Source of the DNA: Schmidtea nova
Lineage: Eukaryota
DNA length: 64,000 bases
Direction of reading: 5' to 3'
Assembly (NCBI GenBank): GCA_044892505.1
Contig: CM097882.1
Location: forward strand, 174,778,001 to 174,842,000
In this document: positions 1-30,219 of the stretch, piece by piece
Layout: each line of letters starts with the position of its first letter
Position numbering within the stretch: the first letter of the stretch is position 1
Notes under the pieces: generated by a model
Database searches by the model: none
What the model saw: the letters and a program-made list of their open reading frames with translations, nothing else
Told to the model about the DNA's origin: nothing
Position numbers and translations under genes: made by a program

Positions 1-3000
1 TAAAGTAAAATAAGGTACTTTTGTATGAAAATTAGATATTATTTAAATTAAATTAAGTAGGTCATATATGAAATTAAGTAGGTCATATATTTGAATATTT
101 ATTTTTAAAGTAAAATTAGATACTTTTTGTATGAAAATTAGATATTATTTAAATTAAATTAAGTAGGTCAAAAATGAAATTAAGTAGGTCATATATTTAA
201 ATATTTAATTTAAAGTAAAATTAGGTACTTTTTGTATGAAAATTAGATATTATTTAAATTAAATTAAGTAGGTCATATATGAAATTAAGTAGGTCATATA
301 TTTAAATATTTAATTATATTTAAATATTATTTAATTTAAGGTCATATATGAAATATTTTTTAATTAAGTAAGTCATATATGAAATATTTTTATTTAAGAC
401 AAAATAAAGTAGGTCATATATGAAAATCGTATTATTTAATTTAAAATAAGTAGGTCATATATGAAAAATTATAATTTAGGGACAATTTAAGGTCAAATAA
501 AGTAGGTCATATATTTAAATATTTATATATTAAATTAAGTAGGTCATATATTTAAATATTTATATATTAAATTAAGTAGGTCATATATTTAAATATTTAA
601 TTTAAAGTAAAATTAGGTACTTTTTATACGAAAATTAGATATTATTTAAATTAAATTAAGTAGGTCATATATGAAAATCGTATTATTTAATTTGAAATAA
701 GTAGGTCATATATGAAATTTAGTAGGTCATATATTTAAATATTTAATTATATTTAAATATTATTTAAATTAAGGTCATATATGAAATATTTTTTAATTAA
801 GTAAGTCATATATGAAATATTTTTATTTAAGACAAAATAAAGTAGGTCATATATGAAAATCGTATTATTTAATTTGAAATCAGTAGGTCATATATGAAGA
901 CATTATTATTTAATTTAAAATTAAATAAGTCATATATAAAATATTTTTATTTAAGACAAAATAAAGTAGTTCATATATGAAAATCGTATTATTTAATTTA
1001 AAATAAGTAGGTCATATATGAAAAATTATAATTTAAGGACAATTTAAGGTCAAATTAAGTAGGTCATTTATGAAAAATTAAATATTTATTATCAAATTAA
1101 GTAGGTCACATATGAAAATATTTTTATTTACGTCAAAATTAAGTACTTAATATATTAAAATTATTTTTATTTAAAGTCGAATTAGGTACTTTATATATGA
1201 AAAATAAGATATTATTAAAGCAAAATTAAGTACTTTATATGAAAAATTATTATTTAATTTAAGTAAGTCATATATAAGAGAAATTAAATATTTATTATCA
1301 AATTAAGTAGGTCATATATGAAAAGTTAAAATAATATAATTTAAGGACAATTTAAGGTCAAATGAAGTAGGTCATATATGAAACTATTTTTAAATTAAGT
1401 AGGTCATATATGAAATATTATTTAAATTAAGTAAGTCATATATGAAAATATTTTTAAATTAAGCAGGTCATATATTTAAATACTTAATTTAAAGTCAAAT
1501 TAGGTAATTTTTACATGAAAATTAAATATCATTAAAGTCAAATTAAGTAGTTCATATATGAAATATTTTTAAATTAAGTAGGTCATATATGAAAATATTT
1601 TTAAATTAAGTAGGTCATATATGAAACTATTTTTAAATTAAGTAGGTGATATATGAAATATTATTTAAATTAAGTAAGTCATTTATGAAAATATTTTTAA
1701 ATTAAGTAGGTCATATATTTAAATACTTAATTTAAATTCAAATTAGGTACTTTTTACATGAAAATTAAATATTATTAAAGTCAAATTAAGTAGGTTATAT
1801 ATGAAAATATTATTTAAATTAAGTAGGTCATATATGAAATATTTTTTAATAAAGTAAGTCATATATGAAATATTTTTATTTAAGACAAAATAAAGTAGGT
1901 CATATATGAAAATCGTATTATTTAATTTAAAATAAGTAGGTCATATGATTTAAGGACAATTTAAGGTCAAATAAAGTAGGTCATATATTTAAATATTTAA
2001 TTTAAAGTAAAATTAGGTACTTTTTATACGAAATTTAGATATTATTTAAATTAAATTAAGTAGGTTATATATGAATTTAAGTAAGTCATATATCTAATTA
2101 TTTAATTTAAAGTAAAATTAGGTACTTTTTTATGAAAATTAGATATTATTTAAATTAAATTAAGTAGGTCATTTATGAAATATTTTTAAATTAAGTAGAT
2201 CATATATTTAAATATTGAATTTAAAGTAAAATTAGGTACTTTTTACGAAAATTAGATATTATTTAAATTAAGTAGGTCATATATTGAATATAAACTAAAA
2301 TTAGGTACTTTTGTATGAAAATTAGATAATATTTAAGTTAAATTAAGTAGGTCATATATCAAATATTTTTTAATTAAATAAGTCATATATTTAAATATTG
2401 AATTTAAAGTAAAATTAGGTACTTTTTACGAAAATTAGATATTATTTAAATTAAGTAGGTCATATATTTATATACTTAATTTAAAGTCAAATTAGGTACT
2501 TTTAATATGAAAATTAAATATTTAAAGTCAAATAAAGTAGGTCATATATGAAAATATTTTTATTTAATTTAAATTAAGTAGGTCATATATGAAGACATTA
2601 TTATTTAATTTAAAATTAAGTAGGTCATATATGAAATATTTTTATTTAAGAGAAAATAAAGTAGGTCATATATGAAAATCGTATTATTTAATTTAAAATA
2701 AGTAGGTCATATATGAAAAATTATAATTTAAAGACAATTTAAGGTCAAATAAAGTAGGTCATATATGAAAAATTAAATATTTATTATCAAATTAAGTAGG
2801 TCATAAATGAAAGTATTTTTATTTACGGCATAATTAAGTACTTTATATATGAAAATTATTTTTTATTTAAAGTCAAATTAGGTACTTTATTATTATTTAT
2901 TTTTATTTAATATAAATTAAGTAGGTCATATTTGAAATATTTTTATTTAAGACAAAATAAAGTAAGTCATATATGAAAATCGTATTATTTAATTTAAAAT

Positions 3001-3420
3001 TAAGTAGGTCATATATGAAAAAATATAATTTAAGGGCTATTTAATGTCAAATAAAGTAGGTCATATATAAGAAATTAAATATTTATTATCAAATTAAGTA
3101 GGTCATATATGAAAATATTTTAATTTAAAGTCATATTAGGTACTTTTTTATATGAAAAAATTAGTTTTTATTAAAGGCTTATTAAATACTTTATATGAAA
3201 AATTATTTAATTTAAGTAGGTCATATATGAAATATATTTATTTAATTTAAATAAAGTAGGTCACATATGATACTATTCAAAGACAAATTAGTTCATATAT
3301 GAAATACTTTATTTAATTTAAATAATATAGGTCATATATGAAAAGATTTTTATTTAAGGCGGAATTACTTAATTCATATGAGAAAATATTTTAAGTAATT
3401 TAGATGAAATATGAAAAATC
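1..3420 (+). repeat. Left arm: irregular tandem array of the AAATTAAGTAGGTCATATATGAAA subrepeat with higher-order blocks
   Basis: Dozens of copies of TAAGTAGGTCATAT in one orientation, interspersed with AAATTAGGTACTTTT variants; very AT-rich. Confidence 0.95.
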
Positions 3421-3995
3421 TAAAATAATTATTTTAATAATTTTTATTATTTACTTTAAAAATTTATTATTATTAATATCTACCAAGGAAAGAGAAGACA
3501 AGATTAAGAACAAGTGCTTAATATCGCCAGTCCTAAAGAGCGGTGATTAAATGCCTGTGCCTAAAAGACACGCTGGGCAAGTGATCGCGTCCACAAGGGT
3601 CGTCGGTGCCTCCCCAAAGTGGGGTCAATAGGACCTGGGCATCAATAGTTCGCTATCTATAGCGATCACGTCTCAGATAAACAAGGGTAGCCAGCTACCA
3701 AGACATCATCCACAACATAGTGTTTCATACGCCATGAATGTGCCGGCAAGTTATCGTCATAGACACGATGACCGAATTTATTGATAATGTACACAAACAT
3801 TCTTAATCATCGCAGAGGCCTCCCATTAGGTTGGATAACGGTCATCCACCACAATGACTAGCATGCTTCATTTAAAAAATAAAATAAGGGATAACAATCC
3901 TTCCCAACCCTCATTTATTAAAATATAAAATAAAATATTAAAGTTTTTTCATTTTCCTCTTCGGTTTTTACCAGTCAAATCTAATAATAAAAGAC

Positions 3996-4436
3996 NNNNN
4001 NNNNNNNNNNNNNNNNNNNNNNNNNNNNNNNNNNNNNNNNNNNNNNNNNNNNNNNNNNNNNNNNNNNNNNNNNNNNNNNNNNNNNNNNNNNNNNNNNNNN
4101 NNNNNNNNNNNNNNNNNNNNNNNNNNNNNNNNNNNNNNNNNNNNNNNNNNNNNNNNNNNNNNNNNNNNNNNNNNNNNNNNNNNNNNNNNNNNNNNNNNNN
4201 NNNNNNNNNNNNNNNNNNNNNNNNNNNNNNNNNNNNNNNNNNNNNNNNNNNNNNNNNNNNNNNNNNNNNNNNNNNNNNNNNNNNNNNNNNNNNNNNNNNN
4301 NNNNNNNNNNNNNNNNNNNNNNNNNNNNNNNNNNNNNNNNNNNNNNNNNNNNNNNNNNNNNNNNNNNNNNNNNNNNNNNNNNNNNNNNNNNNNNNNNNNN
4401 NNNNNNNNNNNNNNNNNNNNNNNNNNNNNNNNNNNN
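3996..4436. other. Assembly gap (N). Other gaps: 17416-17654, 19889-20257, 37333-37540, 42916-43295, ~52227-52432, 57808-58223
   Basis: Runs of N. The X-filled ORFs in the track are artefacts of these gaps. Confidence 0.99.
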
Positions 4437-4660
4437 GATACTAAAAATCTTTAAAAACTCTCAAGGTAAAAAACTTTAAATAAATAATTGAAATTATATA
4501 AAAATCTATCAGGTCAAAAACTTTAATAATTGATATTATAAAATTCAACAATAGTTTTTTTTTGAAACAAAAATAATTCACAAAGTCATAAAATAATTCA
4601 CTTATATAATAACAAAGAAAACACATTTTATAGAAATTAACATTATTTATTAAAAATAAT

Positions 4661-5240
4661 CTAAATTTCGTCTAATTGCAACTCATCTGGATCATTATTT
4701 GGATTTTCGTCTGGATTAATATCAGGATCATCATCAGGTTCATCATCAATGTTGATAGAATTATCTAAATCAACAGATCCCCCTATTTGATTATTATTTA
4801 AAATTTCATTATTTAAAATTACGGGTTGTTGAATTTCAACATCCTCATCATCACTAATAATAATAATAATAAGATCTATTTTAATTTTCTTAGGTGCACA
4901 ACTGATTTTAATATCAGCAGGTCTTTTATTAGTATTTATAGTAGTTATATTATTTTTAATATTAGTTTTATTATTAGTTAAAGTATTTATATTTTTAATA
5001 TTATTTTTATTTATGGTATTTGAATTTCGAAAGATGGATTTTTTATTTTTAAAGAATTGAGAGAGATGAACTTTATGTTCATTATAAAAGTCGGAATAGG
5101 TTTGGGTATGAGATGTTTCCCATTTCGGACATATAAAAAAGTCAATGCCATTAAACCTATGATGATATTATTTATTCATAAGTTCATGGCATTTATTATT
5201 ATGTTTCAATGATGAACCACAATAATTAGGATATAGCGAG
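4661..5240 (-). pseudogene. Decayed cargo ORF in the foldback core: Cys/His-rich N-terminus, Asn-rich middle, acidic D/P-rich tail
   Basis: Manual translation: ...YCGSSLKHNNKCHELMNK*YHHRFNGIDFFICPKWETSHTQTYSDFYNEHKVH...KRPADIKISCAPKKIKID...DDEPDDDPDINPDENPNNDPDELQLDEI*. The frame is open from 5167 to 4661, with an in-frame TAA at 5168-5170. Confidence 0.5.
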
Positions 5241-5759
5241 CCTAAATATATTTTGAAAATTAGTATATATATATATATATATATAATTGATTTGATTTAT
5301 GTATAAAATATTATTTATGTTATTATTTGATTTTATTATATGATTTGATTTTATATTATATTGATTTTAGTTTAATGATGTAATTGTTTAATTTATATAA
5401 GTGATTTGATTTATGTTATTATTTTATTTTATTATATGATTTTATTTTATTTTATTTTATATAATATTGATTTCAGTTTAATGATAATCACTTAGTAATC
5501 ATTATACCACTATAATCATTTATGATAATAATTGATGAGTTTGAAAATATTTATTCTATTATGTAATACTTAAAATATCATAAATTATTACCATAAATGA
5601 ATATGTCAGTATAATAATCACTAAGTGACTTATCATTAAACTGTAAAATTGAATATATTGCATAATAAGATAATTTAGCAAAAATTAATCGCGGAAACAT
5701 AAACGTTAATTATATTATGCAATATTACATTTATCAAATTTTACCGATGTTAATAATAA

Positions 5760-6030
5760 TGATAATGATAATAATTATAATGTTAATAATTATAATAATA
5801 AAAACAATAAGAAGAATAAATATAAGAAGAAGAATAATTATAATGATAATAATAATAATTTTAAAAATAGTAATAATGCTAATAATAATTATTACATTGA
5901 TAATAATAATAGTAATAGTAATTATATAATAATAATACTAATAATGCAAATAATGCAAATAATAATAATTATAATAAAAATATTAATGATAAAAGATATT
6001 AATAAAATAATAATAATGATAATATTAATA
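5760..6030. repeat. Degenerate (AAT)n microsatellite
   Basis: ATAATAATG/ATAATAATT runs. Confidence 0.85.
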
Positions 6031-6052
6031 ATAAAAGAATATATTTTTATAT

Positions 6053-8830
6053 TTTTATATATGACCTACTTAATTTGATAATAAATATTTAATTTCTTAT
6101 ATATGACCTACTTTATTTGACATTAAATAGCCCTTAAATTATATTTTTTCATATATGACCTACTTAATTTTAAATTAAATAATACGATTTTCATATATGA
6201 CTTACTTTATTTTGTCTTAAATAAAAATATTTCAAATATTACCTACTTAATTTTAAATTAAATAATAATGTCTTCATATATGACCTACTTAATTTATATT
6301 AAATAAAAATAAATAATAATAAAGTACCTAATTTGACTTTAAATAAAAAATAATTTTCATATATTAAGTACTTAATTATGCCGTATATAAAAATATTTTC
6401 ATATATGAACTACTTAATTTGATAATAAATATTTAATTTTTCATATATGACCTACTTTATTTTACCTTAAATTGTCCTTAAATTATAATTTTTCATATAT
6501 GACCTACTTATTTTAAATTAAATAATACAATTTTCATATATGACCTGCTTTATTTTCTCTTAAATAAAAATATTTTCATATATGACCTACTTAATTTGAC
6601 TTTAAATATTTAATTTTCATATTAAAAGTACCTAATTTGACTTTAAATTAAGTATATAAATATATGACCTACTTAATTTAAATAATATCTAATTTTCGTA
6701 TAAAAAGTACCTAATTTTACTTTAAATTCAATATTTAAATATATGACCTACTTAATTAAAAAAATATTTCATATATGACCTACTTAATTTAACTTTAATA
6801 ATATCTAATTTTCACACAAAAGTACCTAATTTTAGTTTAAAATCAATATATGACCTACTTAATTTCATATATGACCTATTTAATTAAAAAATATTTCATA
6901 TATGACCTACTTAATTTAATTTAAATAATATCTAATTTTCATACAAAAGTACCTAATTTTACTTTAAATTAAATATATTAATATATGACCTACTTAATTT
7001 CATTTATGACCTACTTAATTTTATTTAAATAATATCTAATTTTCATACAAAAAGTATCTTATTTTACTTTAAATTAAATATTTAAATAAATGACCTACTT
7101 TATTTCATATATGACCTACTTAATTAAATTTAAATAATATCTAATTTTCATACAAAAGTACATAAGTTTACTTTAATATCAATAGTTAAATATATGACCT
7201 ACTTAATTTCATATATGACCTACTTAATTTAATTTAAATAATATCTAATTTTCGTATAAAAAGTACCTAATTTTACTTTAAATTAAATATTTAAATATAT
7301 GACCTACTTTATTTGACCTTAAATTGTCCTTAAATTATAATTTTTCATAAAAGACCTACTTATTTTGTCTTACATAATACGATTTTCATATATGACCTAC
7401 TTTATTTTGTCTTAAATAAAAATATTTCATATATGACTTACTTAATTAAAAAATATATTTCAAATATTTCATATATGACTTACTTAATTAAAAAATATTT
7501 CATATATAACCTACTTAATTTAAATAATATTTTCATATATGACCTACTTAATTTGACTTTAATAATATATAATTGTCATGTAAAAAGTACCTAATTTGAC
7601 TGTAAATTAAGTATTTAAATATATGACCTACTTAATTTAAAAATATTTTCATATATGACCTACTTAATTCAAATAATATTTCATATATGACCTACTTAAT
7701 TTAAAAATATTTTCATATATGACCTATTTAATTTAAAAATATTTCATATATGACCTACTTAATTTGACCTTAATAATATTTAATTTTCATGTAAAAAGTA
7801 CCTAATTTGACTTTAAATTAAGTATTTAAATATATGACCTACTTAATTTAAAAATATTTTCATATATGACCTTAATATAAATAATATTTCATATATGACC
7901 TACTTAATTTAAAAATAGTTTCATATATGACCTACTTTATTTGACCTTAAATTGTCCTTAAATTATATTATTTTAACTTTTCATATATGACCTACTTAAT
8001 TTGATAATAAATATTTAATTTCTCTTATGTATGACCTACTTAAATTAAATAATAATTTTTCATATAAAGTACTTAATTTTGCTTTAATAATATCTAATTT
8101 TTCATATATAAATTACATAATTCGACTTTAAATAAAAAATAATTTTCATATATTAAGTACTTAATTTTGACGTAAATAAAAATATTTTCATATGTGACCT
8201 ACTTAATTTGATAATAAATATTTAATTTTTCATATATGACCTACTTAATTTGATCTTAAATTGGCCTTAAATTATAATTTTTCATATATGACCTACTTAA
8301 TTTTAAATTAAATAATACGATTTTCATATATGAACTACTTTATTTTGTCTTAAATAAAAATATTTCATATATGACCTATTTAATATTAAATTAAATAATA
8401 ATGTCTTCATATATGACCTACTTATTTCAAATTAAATAATACGATTTTCATATATGACCTACTTTATTTAAAAATATTTCATATATGACCTACTTTATTT
8501 AAAAATATTTCATATATGACCTACTTAATTTAATTTAAATAATATCTAATTTTCTTATAAAAAGTTCCTAATTTTACTTTTGATTAAATATTTAAATATA
8601 TGACCTACTTTATTTCATATATGACCTACTTAATTTAATTTAAATAATATCTAATTTTCATACAAAAAGTATCTAATTTTATTATAAAAAAAATATTTAA
8701 ATATATGACCTACTTAATTTCATATATGACCTACTTAATTTAATTTAAATAATATCTAATTTTTGTATAAAAAGTACCTAATTTGACTTTAAATTAGGTA
8801 TTTAAATATATGACCTACTTTATTTGACCT
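6053..8830 (-). repeat. Right arm: inverted copy of the same subrepeat array (TTTCATATATGACCTACTTAATTT)
   Basis: Reverse complement of the left arm; blocks ~840-3110 map co-linearly onto ~8465-6053. Confidence 0.95.
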
Positions 8831-9160
8831 TAAATTCACCTTAAAAATGACCCTTATGTGTCCTTAAACCGACCTAGATCTACTTTTTTGTCCTTAAAGT
8901 GTCCTAAAACCATAAATTTGACCTTAAACTCACCTAAAAGTGTCTTTAAAGTGTCCTAAAACCAAAAATTTGACCTTAAATTCACCTTAAGCGAAAAGTT
9001 TGTCCTTAAAATGACCTTAAAATGACCTACAGAAAATTTGACCTGCATAAAAAAAAATTTCCCTCTGGGGGGCTATAGGGATTTGACCTATATATGACGG
9101 GACACATCCTACTACTGTCTGCTATTAGGGATTTGCACTGGGTATCACAAAGTTTTACTT

Positions 9161-9193: not shown

Positions 9194-10719
9194 CACGGAT
9201 GCACAAAGTGCGGCCCGCGGGCCACATGCGGCTCTTTTGAACAATTTGTGCGGCCCTCGTGTATATTTATTTAATATATTTATTTTAAAAAATGCCTATA
9301 TTTTCAGAAATTGCAGCACTAAAAAAACATTTTCAGTTTTTAGATATTGCAAGTGCCCTAAAAAATTAGAAATGGCAGCACTTTTTTGTTACACTAAAAA
9401 TTAGTCTGCAGGGTTATTTCAATACATATAACTATTTTTTGTTTGGTTATCTTCAAGAAACTTTTTGAAAATGTTGTGTTTTGCAATATCACAGATTTAA
9501 TATGAATTGCACAGATTTAATAAAAATTGCACATATATAATAAAAGTTCTAACTACAAAGTAATTGTTTTGTATATATTTGTTTGTACTAAGCTAGAATT
9601 CAAAATATCTTCCCAACATAAACAGCTAGTTATAAATTTTAAAATATAAAATCAAAAAATAACGCCTTCTAATTTTCTGTGGGGTGGTAATTACAATAAG
9701 TATGCAAGTTTTTATTTTATATATTTTTTAATTAACAAAGTTTTATAAATTCTAATTAGTATTAGCCCTGCAAGAGAATGATTGCAATCAAACGAAAATT
9801 GGAATCCGAAAACAGGAAATTTAATAATTGTTGGACTGATAAATATTTTGTGTTAGAACACAATAATAAAGTTATATGCTTGATTTGTCAAATAAAGATA
9901 AATTGTATGAAGGAGTTTAACATAAAGAGGCACCATATTACAACACATCTGGAATATGAGAATATTGTGGGCATATCACGGGAAGAAAAGATCAATTGCT
10001 TTAAACGTGGTATTACTGCTCAGCAACAGATTTTTAAAAAATTACATAAAGAATCAGAAGTCGTTTCTGAAATTAGCTACGATTTGTCATTGTTGATCAC
10101 TAAAACAAGTCGACCTTTCACTGAAGGAGAATTTATTAAACAGTGTTTTTTAACAGTGGGAAAAAAGTTTCTCCTGAAATAACAAAAAAGGTTGAAAATA
10201 TATCTTTGAGCAGGACAACAGTTCAGCGTCATGTGGTTGAAATGGCTGATGACATCTGTGATCAGTTCAAAGAAAAAACTGAAGATATTAGATATTTTTC
10301 TCTGGCTATTGATGAGTCAACTGATATTTCTTCAACGGCACAATTGATGATATTTTTCCGTGGTGTAACTAATAATTTTGAAATTTATGAAGAATTATTG
10401 GCGATAAGTTCATTAAAAGACCATACGACTAGAAGCGATTTGCTGACGAGTTTACTAAACTAATGTGAAAAGGCTGGCCTTGATTTAAAAAAACCTTCTG
10501 GTATTACTACAGATGGTGCACCTTCCATGATTGGTGCAAACAATGGTATGGTATCATTGCTGAAGAATAGTCTTGGTAATCGAAACTTAGAAGTATTTCG
10601 GTTCCATTGCATTATACATCAACAAAATCTTTGTGGAAAAGACTTAGGATTCGATCATGTAATGAAGGTAGTCGTATCAGTAGTAAATTTCTTAAAATAT
10701 AGAGGTCTCAAATATAGAG
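9194..10719 (+). mobile_element. 5' half of a hAT transposon (SPIN/Buster/GTF2IRD2-like), 3'-truncated
   Basis: Left end CACGGATGCACAAAGTGCGGCCCGCGGGCCACATGCGGC, typical of Charlie/SPIN ends, followed by transposase fragments. Confidence 0.85.
9778..10719 (+). pseudogene. hAT transposase (GTF2IRD2/EPM2AIP1-like), frameshifted and truncated
   Basis: BED-like CLIC...KRHH finger, FSLAIDESTD (catalytic D), TTDGAPSM, HCIIHQQNLC; split over ORFs 9778-10182, 10143-10463 and 10527-10748. Confidence 0.9.
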
Positions 10720-13700
10720 TGTGCGGCGCGCAAAACACAACATTTTGAATTTTCATTTTGGCCATCTTGTAGAAAATAAAATTCTGTCTATACATTGTTA
10801 CAGCGAGAAAAACGAATAATTTCAATTCTGGGTACAAATAAAGAAAAAAGAAAAAACGGGAGAGTAGGGGATAGTGAGGACACGGGGCCAAGCTTTTTAT
10901 TCCTAGAACTAGTATTTGATTATGATGATATGCCTATGAAACTGAGTGATATCCCAACTTTTGAACGAAAAAATCCTGGTTTGGCAATTAATGTGCTAAC
11001 TTATAATGATAATCAGTTATCTGATATGGATAATGTTGTAATGAAACACCCGCATTTGGATATAATTCATCGATGAAAAGTCTTAGATGGGAAGCAGATT
11101 TACTTATTATTATTAGAAAATAAAGATCACTTTCATTATACTGCAGTAATTAACATCGATCGTTTGATGAATTGTCATAAAAGCGCAAATTGTAGTGTTC
11201 AGATCGGTTGCAAGTGGTGCAAAAATTGTTTGAATGGATTCAGGAAGAAAAAAGCTTTTGAAAAGCATCAAGCATTGTGCAAGAAAAATCAATCGGGTAC
11301 AACTTTATATACTATGCCAATAGATAAAAATTTGGAATTCAAAAACTGGTCAAAGATAATAACACCTCCATTTGTTATTTATGTAGATTTTGAGTCGATT
11401 TTACCAAAGGATGACACTTATTTTCAAAAACATTTACCAATTTCAGCCGGACTCTTATTAATCAACAATTTTACCGGAATATCAAGTTATTATCAATTTG
11501 TAGGTGATGATTGTGTTTATCAATTTTTGAAGAAAGTAAAGATTATAGCAACAAAAATTGTTCTTCCATATTACATCAAAGAAGGGAAAAAGCCAATGTC
11601 ACCACTTTCGCTAGATGAAAAGCAATCATTTGAAAATTCAACAATTTGTTACTTGTGCACGAAACAGATGATAGAAAAGGTCAGAGATCACGATCATTTT
11701 ACTGGAAAATATATGGGTTCCGCATGTAATAAATGTAATATGTCAAGGAAAATCAATGAAATATTGCCCGTTGTGTTTCACAATTTGAGGGGTTATGATT
11801 TACACCATATCCTTAAGTATGGGTAAATCGTTTTCCGGATTGGAATTTAAGCTGTATTCCTCTTACAACTGAAAAGTTTTTATCGCTTATTGCATACATT
11901 GGTGGGATTTCAATTAAATTTATTGACTCTTATCAGTTTGTCAATGACTCCTTAGCTAAAGCCGTCAAAATATTGAACCACTTACCCATTACAAAATCAA
12001 AATTTAATGGAATTATAGTAGAATCAAAAGGAATATTTCCATATAACTTTGCCACTAATCAAGAAGTTTTGGAAACAACAACAGAATTACCCCCAATCTG
12101 GGATGGGGTTTCAAAAGAAGAATATGAAAAAGCCCAACATATATGGGAAGAAACACGTTGTAAAACGTTGATGGATTATCAGTTAGTTTATTTGAAACTT
12201 GACGTGTTTCTATTGGCTGATTTCTTTCAACAGTTTAGGGCTAAATCTATAGCTCATAATCGATCGGAACCATTGAACTTTTATGGAATCCCTGGAATGT
12301 CTTGGGCATCATCACTTATGACTTTAGATGAACCAATTGAACTGATACGAGAAATGGAAATGTTTAATTTTTATGAAGGAGGAATTCGAGGTGGCCTTAC
12401 CTTTGTGAACAAGCATTATGTTAAATCAGATACAACTACAGAGCTATTGTACATAGATATCAATAACATTTATGGATGGGCTTTAAGTCAAAGCTTGCCG
12501 TGTGGAGACTTTAGCTGGATTCATTCAGATCTAGATAAAATCTTAGACGAATGCAAGAATTTAGAATTAGAAACGCTTCCGTATGGCTATACCGCAAAAG
12601 TTGATTTAGAGATCTCTTCAGAAATTCATGATTTCTTGGATGATCTACCTGTAGCAGCAGAAAAAATGTGTGCTCCAGGATCTAAAGTAGAAAAGTTAAT
12701 GTTGACACACTATCCAAAGAAAAATTATGTAATTCATTGGCGGTTACTTCAAATGTTTATATCATTAGGTGTAAAAGTAATCAATATACATAGAGCTGTT
12801 AAATTTAAACAGGTTGCTATTTTCAAGAAGTATATTGATACAAATACTAAGCTAAGAGCTGAGTCTAATAATAGTCTCGATAAGAATTATTATAAGCTTT
12901 TGAATAATAGTCTGTACGGAAAAACAGTCGAAAATTTGAAGAAAGGAATGAATTTGAGACTGTAATACTGAACAGAAAATGATAACATATGCTTCCAAGC
13001 CAACTTTTCAAAGAAGTATCAAGATTGATGATGATTTAATAGCTGCCTTACCAAATAAAGACTATTTATTTGGATAGACCCAGCTATATAGGTCAATCAG
13101 TTTTGGATTTATCGAAACTTCGGATGTATCAGTTACAATATCTAAAGTTAGCTAAATATCGAGCACAATTCAGTTGCGAAATAAATATTGTTGCTGGAGA
13201 TACTGATAGTTTTTTCTTGGAATGTAAAAATGTTAAATTAGATACATTATTACTGGCAATGGTTAATGACAATCTCTTGGATACATCTAATTATCCTTCG
13301 GAACATCCACTCTTTTCCAGAAAATTGGATTCAGTTATCGGAAAGTTCAATGATGAAAGTAAAGGTAATGGATATAAAGAATGGGTCTTTTTAAGACCAA
13401 AATGTTACAGTTTGTTAGGGGAAAAAGAGTGCATTAAAGCTAAGAGTATCACATTAAAGGATACTAAACTGAATCATCAGTCGTACCTGGATTGTTATAA
13501 TAACATCAAAAGGTTTATAGTACCACAATGTCGAATTGGTACACAAAATCATCAATTATTTAGTTTTCAGCAGTCGAAAGTTGCTTTAACAAATGCCGAT
13601 GATAAAAGAATTTGGATTGAAAAGAATAAAAGTCATGCATATGGGTACTATGGTGATGAAAGAAAAATGAAAACAATTTACGGAGAATATAGTTTATAAT

Positions 13701-14310
13701 GAAATTATGTTATGATTAATAAATATAATTAGAAAATGTCTTAGTTTTTATTATGTTTAAATGAAATTTATAATAATTATATATATATATTTTTTAATCT
13801 GGATACTCAAGATTATTGTTAATATATATTTTGTGAGTGTTTATTTACTAGTGATTTAAAACGAGTTTCTAGTATCATTTAAACAAAAGACTTTATTAAC
13901 TTATTGGTAATATAAAACTAAAAAGTAGTTAAAGCAATATGTCAAATTTATTTAAATATATTTTAAGATTTAACCCTACTTTATCTTCCAAAATCTCCAT
14001 CAATCAATTGAAAATAAAAGTTATTTTGAAATCCCCACCAAATTTTATTTATACTAAATATTTAAAAACATCTTTTGTTTAAACACACTAAATATTCTAT
14101 ACGCACTATACACAATTAAAAGTCAATCTAATGTTCTTTTACGCACACTTAATTCCCGCAAAGATCCATACACTTTATTCCCACCAAAGTTCATGTATGC
14201 ATACCTAATTACCACCAAAGTTGGTTTACACACACTATAATCATTTTTTCGTAAATGTTAGGGGGAGAGGGAGGGGGGTAAGTGGGCCAGATGTGACACA
14301 TCATACTACT
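10720..14310 (+). mobile_element. Right-end fragment of a Polinton/Maverick
   Basis: pPolB followed by ~610 bp with short CCACCAAA(G) repeats and a G-rich patch, ending GACACATCATACTACT (14295-14310), i.e. an AGTAGT-type terminus. Confidence 0.8.
10725..13699 (+). pseudogene. polB: Protein-primed family B DNA polymerase of Polinton/Maverick (adintovirus) type, frameshifted
   Basis: ExoI YVDFESIL; CYLC..DHDHFTG..ACNKCN endonuclease VII-like Zn module; ExoII FHNLRGYD; KGIFPY; ExoIII YLKLDVFLLAD; GIRGG; motif A YIDINNIYG; motif B KLLNNSLYGKTVEN; motif C GDTDS; RPKCY; DDKR. Confidence 0.93.
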
Positions 14311-14566: not shown

Positions 14567-16327
14567 GTGTTTTCTTCCAAATGTGACCCTCATAGAATGT
14601 ACATACTGAAAAGTCTGTGCATCCTTGTTAAACGTCATTACGAACAACATCAATCAAAATATGACAATTACGTAGGATTAATGAGACAAGAAAAATTGAA
14701 AGAGCTCAAGTTAGGTTTGAAAAAACAACAGTTACTGTTCAGTAAAGTATTGCAAGAAAGTGAAGCGGCGGTACATGCAAGCTACATCTTGCCCGAGTTG
14801 ATAGATAAACACTCGAAGCCTTTTACTGAAGATGATTTCATCAAGGAATGGCTTATTAAAGCTGGAGAAATTGTTTGTTTTTAGAAATATGAAGGCTTAT
14901 CAAACAATTTCTTGGCCGCCAATTTAAGTGATCATATCAAAGCAAAGTCATCTAGTTTCGAAAGTTTTTCCATTGCCTGTGACGAGAGCACGGACATTGG
15001 TAGCACAGCTTAATTAGCTGTGTTTCTTCGTTCTTGCGAAACGGATTTGAACATTTTTGAGGAACATTTGGACCTAATACTGATGCCTGATAATGCTACA
15101 GGACAAGATATATTTAATTGCGTTTTTAAACTTCTGCAGAAATACAATCTACCTCTGTCAAAATTAAATTCTGTAGCTACAGATGGCGCTCTATCAATGA
15201 CCGGAAAAAACAACGGCTTCGTAGCATTACTAAGGAAATCATCATGCACATTGTATTATACACAAAAATGTCCTATGCACGAATGTAATAAACATTAAAA
15301 ATGTTTTGTCATATAAAAAAAGTTATAAATTTTATAAGATCTCTAGACTTAAATCAGCGTCAATTCACTGCTTTCTTAAGTGATTTAGATAGTGCATATT
15401 TAGGTTTTTCCTACTATACCGAGGTACGTTGGTTATCTTGCTCCAAGATTCTCAAACAATTCTGGAATTTGAAAGAAGAATTATGTCATTTTTTAAAAAC
15501 TAGAAATCAAGACACAAGTTTGTTTTCCGATCCAATATGGTTTCAAGATTTACCTAACACTTAAACGAATAAAATTTATCGTTACAAGGAAAAGATCAGA
15601 TCATTACGAACATGTTTGACATAATTACATCATTCAAATGTAAGCTCTTTGGGAAAAGCAACTCAGAAATGAAGATTTGACGCACTTTCCGACGTGCAGC
15701 TTGAACAAATCAAGTTTAGATGATAAATTATCGTAAAAACAAACTCAGAAAAAATTCCAAATCTCACTTCTGAATTTGAAACAAGATTTAAAGATTTTAA
15801 TTCTTTGACATATTTTGTTTGTATTCTTCGATTTTCTCAATAATTATAGACTCAGTATCCAGTCATATGCAAATCGAGGTGATCAAGATTCAGTGCGACT
15901 CAAATTTGACGGCAAAATTCATTGAAGAGGATGTGCCTGAATTTTACAAATATTTACTAGCCAGGTTTAAAAATACTCAAAATTATCATATAAAATTACT
16001 TCCATGTTCGGTAGTACTTATCGGTGCAAGCAATTATTTTCTGTTATGAAAGGTAATAAGTCTACTGTTTAAAACAGTATTAATGACGTTTACCTTAGGT
16101 TAGTGTTGAAAGTCATCACTACGAACAAAATTTCTTCCGAAATAGGAAAGATAGTAGGAGAGAAGAGATGTTAAGTGTCAGGACGTAAACATTAAATTTT
16201 TATTGCTCTTTTATATGTTTATTATAATGTATTATTCGAAATAAACCTACGATTTTTCGAATATTGATTTTTTTGCGGCCCAACTTTTATGTTTGGTCTA
16301 AGTTAGTCTATGAGTTTGACACCTTTG
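14567..16327 (+). mobile_element. Second decayed hAT (SPIN/Buster-like) with right TIR
   Basis: Transposase fragments (KRHYEQH, FSIACDESTD, VATDGALSM, EVRWLS, STY..EQLFS-like tail). The right end TGAGTTTGACACCTTTG has reverse complement CAAAGGTGTCAAACTCA. Confidence 0.85.
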
Positions 16328-28565: not shown

Positions 28566-29989
28566 CAGTGGCGGACTGGGCTGGCGGGACACCGGGACAT
28601 TTCCCGGTGGGCCGGTCGAATTAGAGGCCGCGAGGCCGGCGATATGTAAACTATTAAATTATTTCTTCTGATTAAAAAAAATAAATAAATGAAACAATAT
28701 ACAATACACCCATACCTCGCTTTACGGCCTAGATACGTTCTACGAAACTTGGCCGCAAAGCGAACAGCCGTATAACGAATCAATTATTCTAATTATCAAT
28801 GCAATTATCAATGCAAACTTTAAGAATAAATTATCGATTAGGCGTTAATGGGTTAAATAAATACTTATGGTATTATATTGTTAAATTATTTACGTTTATT
28901 ATTTAGAAAAAATGGAAAAAAGAAAATTTAAAGAAGGCGCTCAAAAAGAGAGAGAAAAGCGACAAAAAATCATGCAAGAAGCTGATAAAAATACTCTTAA
29001 ATTAAGTGATATGTTTGCTTCAACTTCTAAGATCAATGCATTTGATATTGAAAATTTGAATAAGGATTTGGATTTAAGTTCATCAGTTTCGAGGAATTAT
29101 GATACTATTATGTGTCCCATTGGCGCAGATAAAGTTGAAACATCAATTCTCGAAGAAATAACTTCAGTTTCAACTTCCACCCAGGCCAATAATGAAATGA
29201 TAACACCAACAAACAAAATGTTTAATTTCTTATCAGATAATTATTTCATAAGGCCAGGAAATCAAAATTATGAAGAGTTTTTTAAAAAACATCCATGCCA
29301 ACCAACCATTGATGACATTACTAATTTACCTTTTAAACCAAATTTAATATTTTATAGAGAAGATAAAGTAAATAGGCGTTGGCTATCATATAGTTTGGAA
29401 AAAAATACTCTATTTTGTACCATGTGTTTGGCTTACAGTGATATTACAAACGAGAGTTCGTTTGTAAATCGTGGAATGACGGACTGGAGGCACACTTTGC
29501 AACGTGTTAAAGAACATGAAAATAGTAAAACTCATGAAAATTGTGTAAATTGTCATATGCTCAAATCTAAAGGCAAAGATATTTATAATTTAATGTTCAC
29601 AAATGAAGGAAGCATACGTCATAAAAATATTATTGAACGAAAGCAAGTATTGGAAAGAATTATAGATGTTGTAAAATTAATTGGAAAAAGAGGATTAGCT
29701 TTTCGCGCTCACCGATCTGAATCTGTTTCTTCACTTTCACTTGAAAATAATCAAGAAGACAATGGTAATTTTTTAGAAATAATATTGCTACTCTCTAAAT
29801 ATGACGCTGTTTTAAAATTACATTTATCAAGAGTCATCAAAGAAAAGAAGAAAAATAATGAAACATCTGCGGGAACTAAAGGTAGAGGCAGTTTCATTTC
29901 ATTAATTTCAAAATCTACTATTAACCAGGTAATTTTGGCCAGTGGAAAATTAATTCAAGATAGCATTTTGTTAGATATACAGGAAGCAG
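28566..29989 (+). mobile_element. 5' half of a hAT (ZMYM1/Tip100-like) with transposase ORF 28912-~29995
   Basis: Left TIR CAGTGGCGGACTGGG. The ORF has a TTF-type Zn finger (RWLSYS..LFCTMC...HENSKTH) and DUF4371-like LAFRAH/GNFLEII motifs, and is truncated at DIQEAGY. Confidence 0.88.
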
Positions 29990-30219
29990 GTTATGTGATC
30001 AAATTAATATTTTTATGTAGTTATTTTTGTTGATATTGTTATTGTTATTACTTATTAATCATATGATAATTATTTCCGCCTCTTCCTCAAATTCTTGTGA
30101 TAATATAGTCGTTTATTCCCTATAGTAAGTACCTTACCAACTTACTAAGGAAATTCAAAAATTCAAAAATCAATGGAAATTTTAAATTTGAAAATGACAT
30201 AACAACAGGAAAGTAAATT

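Follow-up and report, generated by a model that had tools for sequence, protein, structure and literature searches.

The locus described here raises the question of what kind of mobile element occupies the left end of the window, where long inverted satellite arms surround a core, and how it came to be there; by the window we mean the whole stretch analysed (64,000 nucleotides of Schmidtea nova, assembly GCA_044892505.1, contig CM097882.1, positions 174,778,001 to 174,842,000). The first-pass annotation had read it as a giant foldback parasite of a Polinton, and had set as a test beforehand that a left terminus preceded by a second GTCTGC should lie outside the window. Such an end was indeed found: the terminus AGTAGTAG and the left copy of the target-site duplication (TSD) lie 570-576 nt to the left of window base 1, the terminus reading AGTAGTAGAATTTGTCCCCG, with 2 substitutions. 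The element spans 9,686 bp, from CM097882.1 174777431 (570 nt outside the window) to the right terminus GACACATCCTACTACT, whose last base is 9116, and the 6-bp duplication GTCTGC stands on both sides (Table 1). A paralogous site that is empty and has a single GTCTGC is found ~370 nt beyond the left end. The end motifs 5'-(AGT)2 // (ACT)2-3' are present on the terminal inverted repeats (TIRs), and the two ends mismatch at 9/207 aligned bases. The host repeat at the right flank received two insertions, 1 nt apart (the window element and the full-length element K8); a target preference for this repeat was rejected as too weak, with 2 insertions among 4,518 sites and 0.057 further matches expected by chance.

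Table 1. Features of the element and of its neighbour, in window coordinates.
Feature	Position	Strand	Description
Left arm, in-window part	1..3334	+	array of 21-52-bp subrepeats built on AAGTAGGTCA
U1 non-coding module, ~40% GC	3440..3995		3520-3760 core 92-100% identical across elements with the three termini
pPolB 3' end (acidic tail) and downstream flank	4443..4748	-	89% to palindrome Q2
pPolB 5' part (aa 3-145)	4735..5259	-	abuts 3' end via internal deletion of ~3.4 kb
Region upstream of pPolB	5260..6038		AT-rich, as in Q-type palindromes, (AAT)n run at end
Right arm	6062..9116	-	inverted 3,055-bp array, subterminal unique part with G-run, terminus GACACATCCTACTACT
Right TSD copy GTCTGC	9117..9122	+	within host repeat with hammerhead-like core
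Truncated Polinton, other family (not part of the element)	10852..14310	+	pPolB in multiple frames; its own TIR ends ...CATACTACT

The 28-nt terminus has 775 exact matches in the genome (402 forward, 373 reverse; none for the reversed-pattern control), and the same end ...CTACTACT was present at 30/30 terminus loci fetched, so the terminus match is not due to chance and copies with the same ends do occur genome-wide. Among them, the elements of family A, typically 16.4-17.1 kb long (E4, which has a 4.3-kb insertion, was excluded from the helper length median), carry the same terminus and arrays as the window element; the full-length ones (n = 17) share its termini and encode pPolB and integrase. 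Pfam recognised DNA_pol_B_2 (5.8e-32), rve (5e-09), Pox_A32 (1.7e-06), which is the packaging ATPase, and Peptidase_C5 (1.7e-05), an adenain-type protease, in these helpers. Their capsid-like gene had no sequence match in Pfam or PDB, and its first match in the Atlas (0.98) was to clusters in which 30% of members carry DJR-like_dom, at a recognition value below the reliable mark; a 348-aa ORF between integrase and this gene had no Pfam match and owes its penton label to its position only. The (AGT)2 termini, the 6-bp TSD and a ~17-kb helper with pPolB, integrase, ATPase, protease and capsid-like genes all resemble what is reported for Polintons/Mavericks, and the terminus matches of the three families (775, 1,097 and 2,726) exceed the vertebrate maximum of 287 given in the same sources (PMC8097293, PMC10748475). 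Every coding element with such ends contains Polinton genes, and no P- or Mutator-type transposase partner was found among them. As judged from its AGTAGT ends and 6-bp TSD, the window element is thus a non-autonomous, partly decayed Polinton derivative and not an FB element, for which mobilisation in trans, as already proposed, is most likely. The implied link to the pPolB gene 5 kb away had to be abandoned. The neighbour's terminus GACACATCATACTACT (last base 14310) and that of the element lie where they had been placed, each with its G-rich patch, but this pPolB is 66-68% identical in nucleotides to those of the three helper families tested, its TIR gives short AT-rich matches only, and the matching helper family lies elsewhere in the genome.

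The inverted arms, announced as at least 2.3 kb long, are real and longer, 3,904 bp on the left (570 of them outside the window) and 3,055 bp on the right. Within the window, AAGTAGGTCA occurs 44 times forward (55-3254), 42 times reversed (6062-8811) and nowhere else, and the best collinear inverted block (562-3128 versus 8727-6134) shows 83.8% identity. Such arms had been regarded as an FB-like addition by a parasite; satellite arrays are, however, the normal termini of the full-length helpers, present in all 17 examined (34 arms, 953-2,186 bp, median 1,735), and those of the window copy are about doubled relative to them. Polinton TIRs are reported as 46-1,447 bp in vertebrates or 100-1,500 bp (PMC8097293, PMC10748475), compared with ~1.0-2.2 kb for the helper arms, 3.9 and 3.1 kb for the window copy and 5-8.5 kb for the inverted arms of its relatives; the range of 100-1,500 bp (PMC10748475), which the window element exceeds, is descriptive rather than a strict criterion. 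No trend of array length compensating for a short core was seen across 20 gene-less or capsid-less elements. FB and MULE elements produce a 9-bp TSD, and an FB/MULE identity was rejected on TSD length and termini. More generally, an FB/Galileo-type foldback of a cut-and-paste superfamily (P or MULE), with a Polinton-like end present by chance or nesting, would agree with long, internally repetitive arms: in Galileo, too, TIRs are internally repetitive, their tandem repeats expand and they lengthen by recruiting inner sequence, the longest ones belong to non-autonomous copies, and subfamilies form chimeras (PMC3573991). It nevertheless belongs to the P superfamily, with a 7-bp TSD, TIRs up to ~1.26 kb, cut-and-paste transposition and no polymerase (PMC3573991), and the 6-bp TSD, the (AGT)2 ends, which full Polintons share without difference, the pPolB relic described below and the helper arrays refute this reading, to which we attach a negligible probability.

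The core (~3335-6061, including 441 unreadable N bases) gave no integrase or transposase match in its readable part when the 12 gene ORFs of the helper served as tblastn queries, as the annotation had it; it is not blank, however, since it holds a pPolB relic and U1. In the readable sequence the window copy has neither an integrase of its own nor an intact pPolB, the latter being reduced to a deleted relic (aa 3-145, 66% identity, E 1e-26). Window 4735-6038 matches Q2 6569-7857 at 90%, and no helper matches the region upstream of the relic along its length, so that no direct parent is seen among them. The pPolB deletion junction was found at 11 genomic places (94-100%) with unrelated flanks; among these siblings, J6 (7.8 kb) has a perfect TSD of its own, J1 a 5/6 TSD, and J2 the relic in both arms. 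U1 is located in both arms of palindromes and at one end of family-B helpers (5/5); in the 27-pair set described below and the A helpers it is carried by 12/13 gene-less elements versus 1/17 A helpers, and by 0/6 C helpers. These distributions bear on the simplest alternative, an ordinary dead Polinton, inserted at full length and later eroded on the spot through deletions and slippage of the satellite, with no mobilisation in trans. In its favour, the inner right junction is unique to the window copy (it was not found at any of the 9 further loci that carry the pPolB deletion), the element ends are 4% diverged, and vertebrate Maverick copies are reported as mostly defective (PMC8097293). The recurrence of the deletion at unrelated sites with separate TSDs largely refutes it. 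The contrast in U1 carriage between the A helpers and the gene-less elements of this unbiased set also speaks against it, as does the match of the core to Q palindromes across a region absent from helpers, and we consider it improbable.

What the window copy matches instead is a single arm of certain palindromes, 16-17 kb in length, in which pPolB is present twice in inverted orientation and integrase and capsid genes are absent. The layout of these Q-type elements is terminus-array-U1-pPolB, mirrored, for a total of 16.2-16.9 kb: Q1 is a 16,191-bp palindrome (99.4%) with an identical frameshift in both pPolB copies and without a TSD, and Q2 measures 16,918 bp with the TSD TACCCT. They are grouped with many gene-less 11-15-kb palindromes, which have arms of 5-7 kb, mostly >99% identical, target duplications and the three Polinton termini. 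Q1, Q2 and the V, U and C types are palindromic over their whole length; the window copy, with a single inner arm left and a right arm lacking both U1 and inner arm sequence, is not. The term giant foldback fits these relatives even better. Taken alone, the window copy is a modest, decayed member, and the interest lies in its wider family. That family was sampled through 27 terminus pairs, fetched out of 28 under 40 kb among the first 100 listed termini; one 34-kb and one 50-kb pair were left out, as were the rows W4 and W10 (termini not parsed) and C2 (right end outside the fetched sequence). Full-length helpers made up 14/27 pairs and gene-less elements 13/27, with a perfect 6-bp TSD in 23 pairs, a 5/6 TSD in 1, mirror flanks in 2 and none in 1.

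The giant palindromes are known here from assembled contigs alone, and mirror-image flanks were indeed seen in F2 and P7 (2/27 pairs; 298 and 300 of 300 bases), as would be the case if fold-back reads had produced assembly artefacts and only the window copy and the helpers were real. This is very improbable: in most palindromes the two flanks are unlike each other and the 6-bp TSDs are direct, the arms show small differences and arrays of unequal length, and central spacers recur between loci. V_b and P7 indeed share their spacer at 99%, U_a and U_d at 100%, U_e and W2 at 100%, and the A-ended P12 has a spacer in common with the C-ended C3 and C4 (91%). Since spacers recur across loci and across termini, the palindrome travels as one piece, and its termini are exchanged. 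Non-autonomous Polintons were reportedly described by Kapitonov and Jurka in 2006, and in Repbase, as gene-less elements with Polinton ends and a TSD; to our knowledge, they have not been described as whole-length palindromes, as carriers of two inverted pPolB genes or as exchangers of termini between families. Non-autonomous transposons usually shrink, whereas these stay near helper length through the mirroring of one end.

From a mechanistic point of view, we think it likely that the element derives from a snap-back, that is, whole-length palindromic, Polinton genome, and that the integrase of a helper with the same terminus inserted it. During protein-primed strand-displacement replication, the two ends of the displaced strand would pair, and a template switch would replace one end by a copy of the other. 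The resulting palindrome could fold on itself to form a duplex origin. With every round of replication both arms would be equalised, while slippage would alter array length. The termini would act in cis as origin and integrase sites, and integrase, together with pPolB once deleted, would be supplied in trans. Arms are more alike within than between elements (6 elements each), with medians of 99.75 vs 97.9% in the V type and 99.95 vs 88.8% in the U type; this identity and the shared mutations fit a panhandle intermediate, although gene conversion in place could also produce identical arms. The palindromes offer a natural test bed for Polinton replication. Neither a replication intermediate nor any activity was seen. 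The window copy would be one Q arm with the 3.4-kb pPolB deletion common to the sibling loci and a right arm cut to its array; because of the instability of long palindromes, the right inner arm probably disappeared once the element was in place. Mobility of this exact form is not established, because it is non-palindromic, its ends differ at 9/207 bases and its inner right junction is unique. Snap-back and copy-back defective viral genomes are similarly palindromic and helper-dependent, with one end copied over the other; most descriptions of them concern cultured RNA viruses (PMC13506859), while the present elements have integrated into a host genome, where they are flanked by TSDs and have multiplied.

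The same palindromes may, more tentatively, be read as defective-interfering genomes packaged in helper capsids, which would add to the snap-back explanation and does not exclude it. Hundreds of integrated Polintovirus genomes of this kind would have been selected at 70-100% of helper length to fill the capsid, U1 being a one-ended packaging or assembly signal that was duplicated, and helpers would be switched by recombination in the shared AAGTAGGTCA arrays; we regard this as possible but doubtful. Consistent with it, 22/28 inverted U1 pairs are spaced 9.7-13.0 kb apart (0 in the opposite-order control), U1 is single-ended in B helpers (5/5) and double-ended in palindromes, and two-ended giant palindromes measure 0.68-1.01 of helper length (1.14 for the complex Q3), though V and U arms match helpers over their outer 1.5-2.5 kb only. 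In adenovirus, the packaging sequence is reported to adjoin one ITR (PMC9863843), and helper-dependent vectors to need filling with stuffer up to about 28 kb (PMC7226970). Against it, helpers without U1 are abundant (A 16/17, C 6/6), short elements occur with perfect TSDs and near-identical ends (S4, 1.6 kb; S1, 3.3 kb; the end-divergence counts of S2, S3 and S5 are inflated by truncated arms), the pPolB-deletion subgroup includes the 7.8-kb J6, and the length pattern is drawn from fetches favouring pairs under ~20 kb. Particles were not seen here, and Polinton particles are given as so far not observed in PMC8097293. The palindrome length distribution bears on the packaging of animal Polintons and, if this reading is true, the palindromes would be a genomic record of a packaged stage. 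In any case, with hundreds of 11-17-kb palindromes in the genome, rearrangements and assembly errors would be expected to cluster at them.

Other roles for U1 were considered. A structured RNA was rejected (no Rfam match above chance, fold z ~ -1.0 on both strands), as was a coding function, no reading frame being conserved between families. Beyond the present genome, U1 gave 0 matches in metagenome and viral contigs. U1 variants were many in contigs of run X1 and few in other runs, no contig running across the stretch, an observation uninformative on function.

The arrays themselves offer a further perspective. No selection on AGGTCA was seen inside them (variation of 5-15% at several positions vs 0-5% in flanks), and this motif is absent from the TIR of the neighbouring family (10852..14310 element). 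Between families A and C, however, agreement over AAGTAGGTCA is 0.94-1.0 and drops to 0.02 one base downstream, 7/10 bases corresponding to the anchor. The repeated AAGTAGGTCA is probably a protein-binding site: AGGTCA after A/T-rich bases resembles the ROR response element DDMWBTRGGTCA (PMC7310410), a mammalian consensus. The two arms hold 52 and 43 instances of this pattern, every one oriented the same way with respect to the end, compared with at most 2 in shuffles. The binder is likely a host nuclear receptor helping an origin or promoter, or could alternatively be a protein encoded by the element.

The window spans C1:174778001-174842000 of the genome. The inverted arms, the core and both termini seen in it match the description given in the first-pass annotation, and extension to the left placed the left end of the element, AGTAGTAGAATTTGTCCCCG, 570 nt outside the window; the bases just ahead of this end, GTCTGC, are found again directly after base 9116. 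An empty nearby copy of the same host repeat carries GTCTGC once only. The element measures 9,686 bp (441 bases of its core being N, unread), and it is a non-autonomous derivative within the Polinton/Maverick class, non-autonomous Polintons having been described in the founding papers and in Repbase. Its 28-nt terminus, which defines family A, occurs 775 times exactly genome-wide (control, 0). Among the first 100 termini listed, 28 inverted pairs lay less than 40 kb apart, and the 27 fetched comprised 14 full-length Polintons, hereafter helpers, and 13 gene-less elements, with a perfect 6-bp TSD in 23, five of six bases in one, mirror-image flanks in two and none in one. With three full-length copies found otherwise, 17 A helpers were available (median length 16.7 kb, n = 16, copy E4 excluded). 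All of them carry the same satellite array at either end (953-2,186 bp, median 1,735), and the satellite is therefore the TIR of family A itself, and not an FB-like addition as had been proposed. Polinton TIRs are reported at 46-1,447 bp (PMC8097293) or, in another study, 100-1,500 bp (PMC10748475). The arrays of the window copy (3,904 and 3,055 bp) are the longest among the A-ended elements measured, siblings reaching 2.1-2.7 kb; one C-ended element held 93 array motifs in its right end as fetched. The pPolB gene 5 kb away (10852-13651), to which a similar terminus had seemed to link the element, belongs to another family (66-68% nt). The first observation was real, while its interpretation was right in part only: derivation from a Polinton stands, unlike the added arms and the implied link with the neighbour.

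The A helpers carry genes for pPolB, for an rve integrase split into two exon-like pieces, for an ATPase of the A32 type and for a protease of the adenain type, as well as for a TBP-like and a capsid-like protein, the capsid assignment of the latter being a lead only. The TBP-matching ORF (157 aa, E about 2e-16, one repeat) was observed in families A, B and C, and no report of TBP in Polintons was found in the accessible parts of the literature searched.

In the core of the window copy, both ends of pPolB are kept, fused across a deletion of ~3.4 kb. This deletion junction recurs at 11 places (94-100% identity), including J6 (7,845 bp, perfect TSD), J1 (TSD 5/6) and J2, in which the relic is present in either arm. 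A search with the upstream region of the relic matched the deletion loci and eight further places, and no full helper; the eight places fall within four palindromic or partly mirrored elements, Q1-Q4. Q1 (16,191 bp, no TSD) is a palindrome at 99.4% with the same frameshift in both pPolB copies, Q2 (16,918 bp, TSD TACCCT) has two inverted pPolB frames of 1,301 codons, and Q3 and Q4 are mirrored in part, with TSDs; inside their ends, no match to integrase or capsid-like genes was found. The Q2 arm and the window core are collinear (89-90%). Helper P3 has an arm and a pPolB that are Q-like at 97%, and thus Q-like forms and helpers recombine. The jump of the window copy from the upstream region into its right array is absent from all nine other pPolB-deletion loci, and 9 of 207 bases are unlike between its two ends, indicating an older copy, whose right inner arm was probably lost in place. 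Several deletion-type and Q-type copies lie within or adjoin the pPolB genes of other Polintons (L085-L086, L089, L201-L202, L208-L209, L087-L088; L-numbers are stretches of the same genome); Polintons cluster.

A 34-mer from the non-coding module U1 occurs 2,194 times at up to two mismatches. Inverted pairs within 45 kb numbered 28 among its first 100 exact matches; 22 of them were spaced 9.7-13.0 kb, and the opposite order, used as a control, gave none. All 15 examined of these 22 had long inverted arms and lacked integrase and capsid-like genes. Scaling 44/100 matches, from one part of one chromosome, gives a rough extrapolation of ~480 such elements. They use three termini, A, B (1,097 matches) and C (2,726 matches). 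Full-length helpers exist for each terminus (B, 5/10 fetched pairs, two of the ten not parsed; C, 6/6 pairs). U1 was present in 12/13 gene-less A elements. Across types, its core of 240 bp shows 92-100% identity, more than the A-B morphogenesis block (89%), and U1 showed no Rfam match, no notable fold and no kept reading frame. Separate loci have central spacers in common, and termini have been exchanged: A-ended P12 and C-ended C3 and C4 have a common spacer, and A-ended palindromes resemble C-ended ones at 93-96% in the inner blocks of their arms. When A (L035-L036) was compared with B helpers (L159, L151, L165), pPolB reached 66% and termini were unalignable, which, set against the morphogenesis block, indicates module exchange. 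F2 (L101-L102) and P7 (L143-L144) show mirror-image flanks (298 and 300 of 300 bases) and no direct TSD, reflecting a larger palindrome, an inversion or an assembly artefact.

The two arms of one element resemble each other more closely than they resemble arms of other elements (99.75 vs 97.9%; 99.95 vs 88.8%). A panhandle model exists for protein-primed replication of adenovirus-like genomes and, by analogy, the two ends of a displaced strand would pair, a template switch would mirror one genome end, and the mirrored palindrome would refold into a duplex origin and be inserted by the helper integrase. In-place gene conversion could add to arm identity. A bolder reading, size selection through packaging, seems rather unlikely: it fits the clustered lengths of the giant palindromes (0.68-1.01 of helper length; Q3, 1.14) and the position of U1 at one end only of B helpers (5/5), but U1 is missing from A and C helpers (found in 1/17 and 0/6) and short young copies exist, elements with perfect TSDs measuring 1.6-10 kb. 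The family probably works like a snap-back defective genome (PMC13506859). Arm dynamics resemble those of Galileo (PMC3573991), but the family differs from it in TSD and transposase. Palindromic Polinton derivatives were absent from the accessible literature searched (including PMC6431247, PMC3014272, PMC8532177 and bioRxiv 2024.01.15.575659) and are provisionally regarded as new.

The RORE consensus DDMWBTRGGTCA (PMC7310410) matches 52 and 43 times in the arms of the window copy, in a single orientation, where shuffled sequence gave no more than 2; any repeat beats a shuffle, and comparison between families is the useful test. AAGTAGGTCA is common to A and C arrays, with differing spacers and agreement down to 0.02 one base downstream. 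B termini contain 7-11 AGGTCA, arranged differently, the neighbour's TIR contains none, and inside A arrays the hexamer is kept no better than its flanks. The subrepeat motif is likely a protein-binding site. In adenovirus, host factors act at the origin within the ITRs. B-type termini show, in their first 400 bp (e.g., L117:3177-3600), TTACGTAA repeated, TGACGTCA once, clustered AGGTCA, and TTTGGCGC then TTTGAA, motifs that look like sites of the bZIP, CRE, nuclear-receptor and E2F/CHR kinds.

Coordinates of features in the window and in other stretches (L) of the genome
Feature	Location	Strand	Remark
TBP-like ORF	L036:3429-3902; L100:3364-3837	+	Pfam TBP; B and C helpers have homologues
Helper integrase	L100:966-2044	-	two frames, split inside catalytic core; C-terminal chromodomain-like match
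U1	window 3440-3995		
pPolB relic	window 4591-4747 + 4735-5259		
Mini-palindrome	L106:364-1931		1,568 bp, nothing but two 777-bp arms, 99.4% alike; TSD TTGCTC
Broken transposase-like segments	window 9778-10760, 14660-16190		Spin-doc zinc finger (E 1e-05); on either side of the adjacent Polinton fragment
Further ORF	window 28912-30033		C17orf113-type zinc finger
Tandem unit, ~14.9 kb	window 31858-64000		copies 97.6-100% identical; ORFs without Pfam match
318-aa ORF	L031:7757-8880		immediately left of host repeat
Host repeat	L031:8860-9430 + window 9117-9160		

The 318-aa ORF matched neither Pfam nor helper pPolB, and the stretch after it resembles, by eye, a pPolB exonuclease motif. The host target is a tandem repeat of ~380 bp whose core is hammerhead-like (a weak match to Rfam HH9, E 0.06, extending partly across the element), a 21-mer from it having 4,518 exact copies. 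K8, a full-length helper (L096-L097), is inserted in the same host repeat, 1 nt from the site of the window element.
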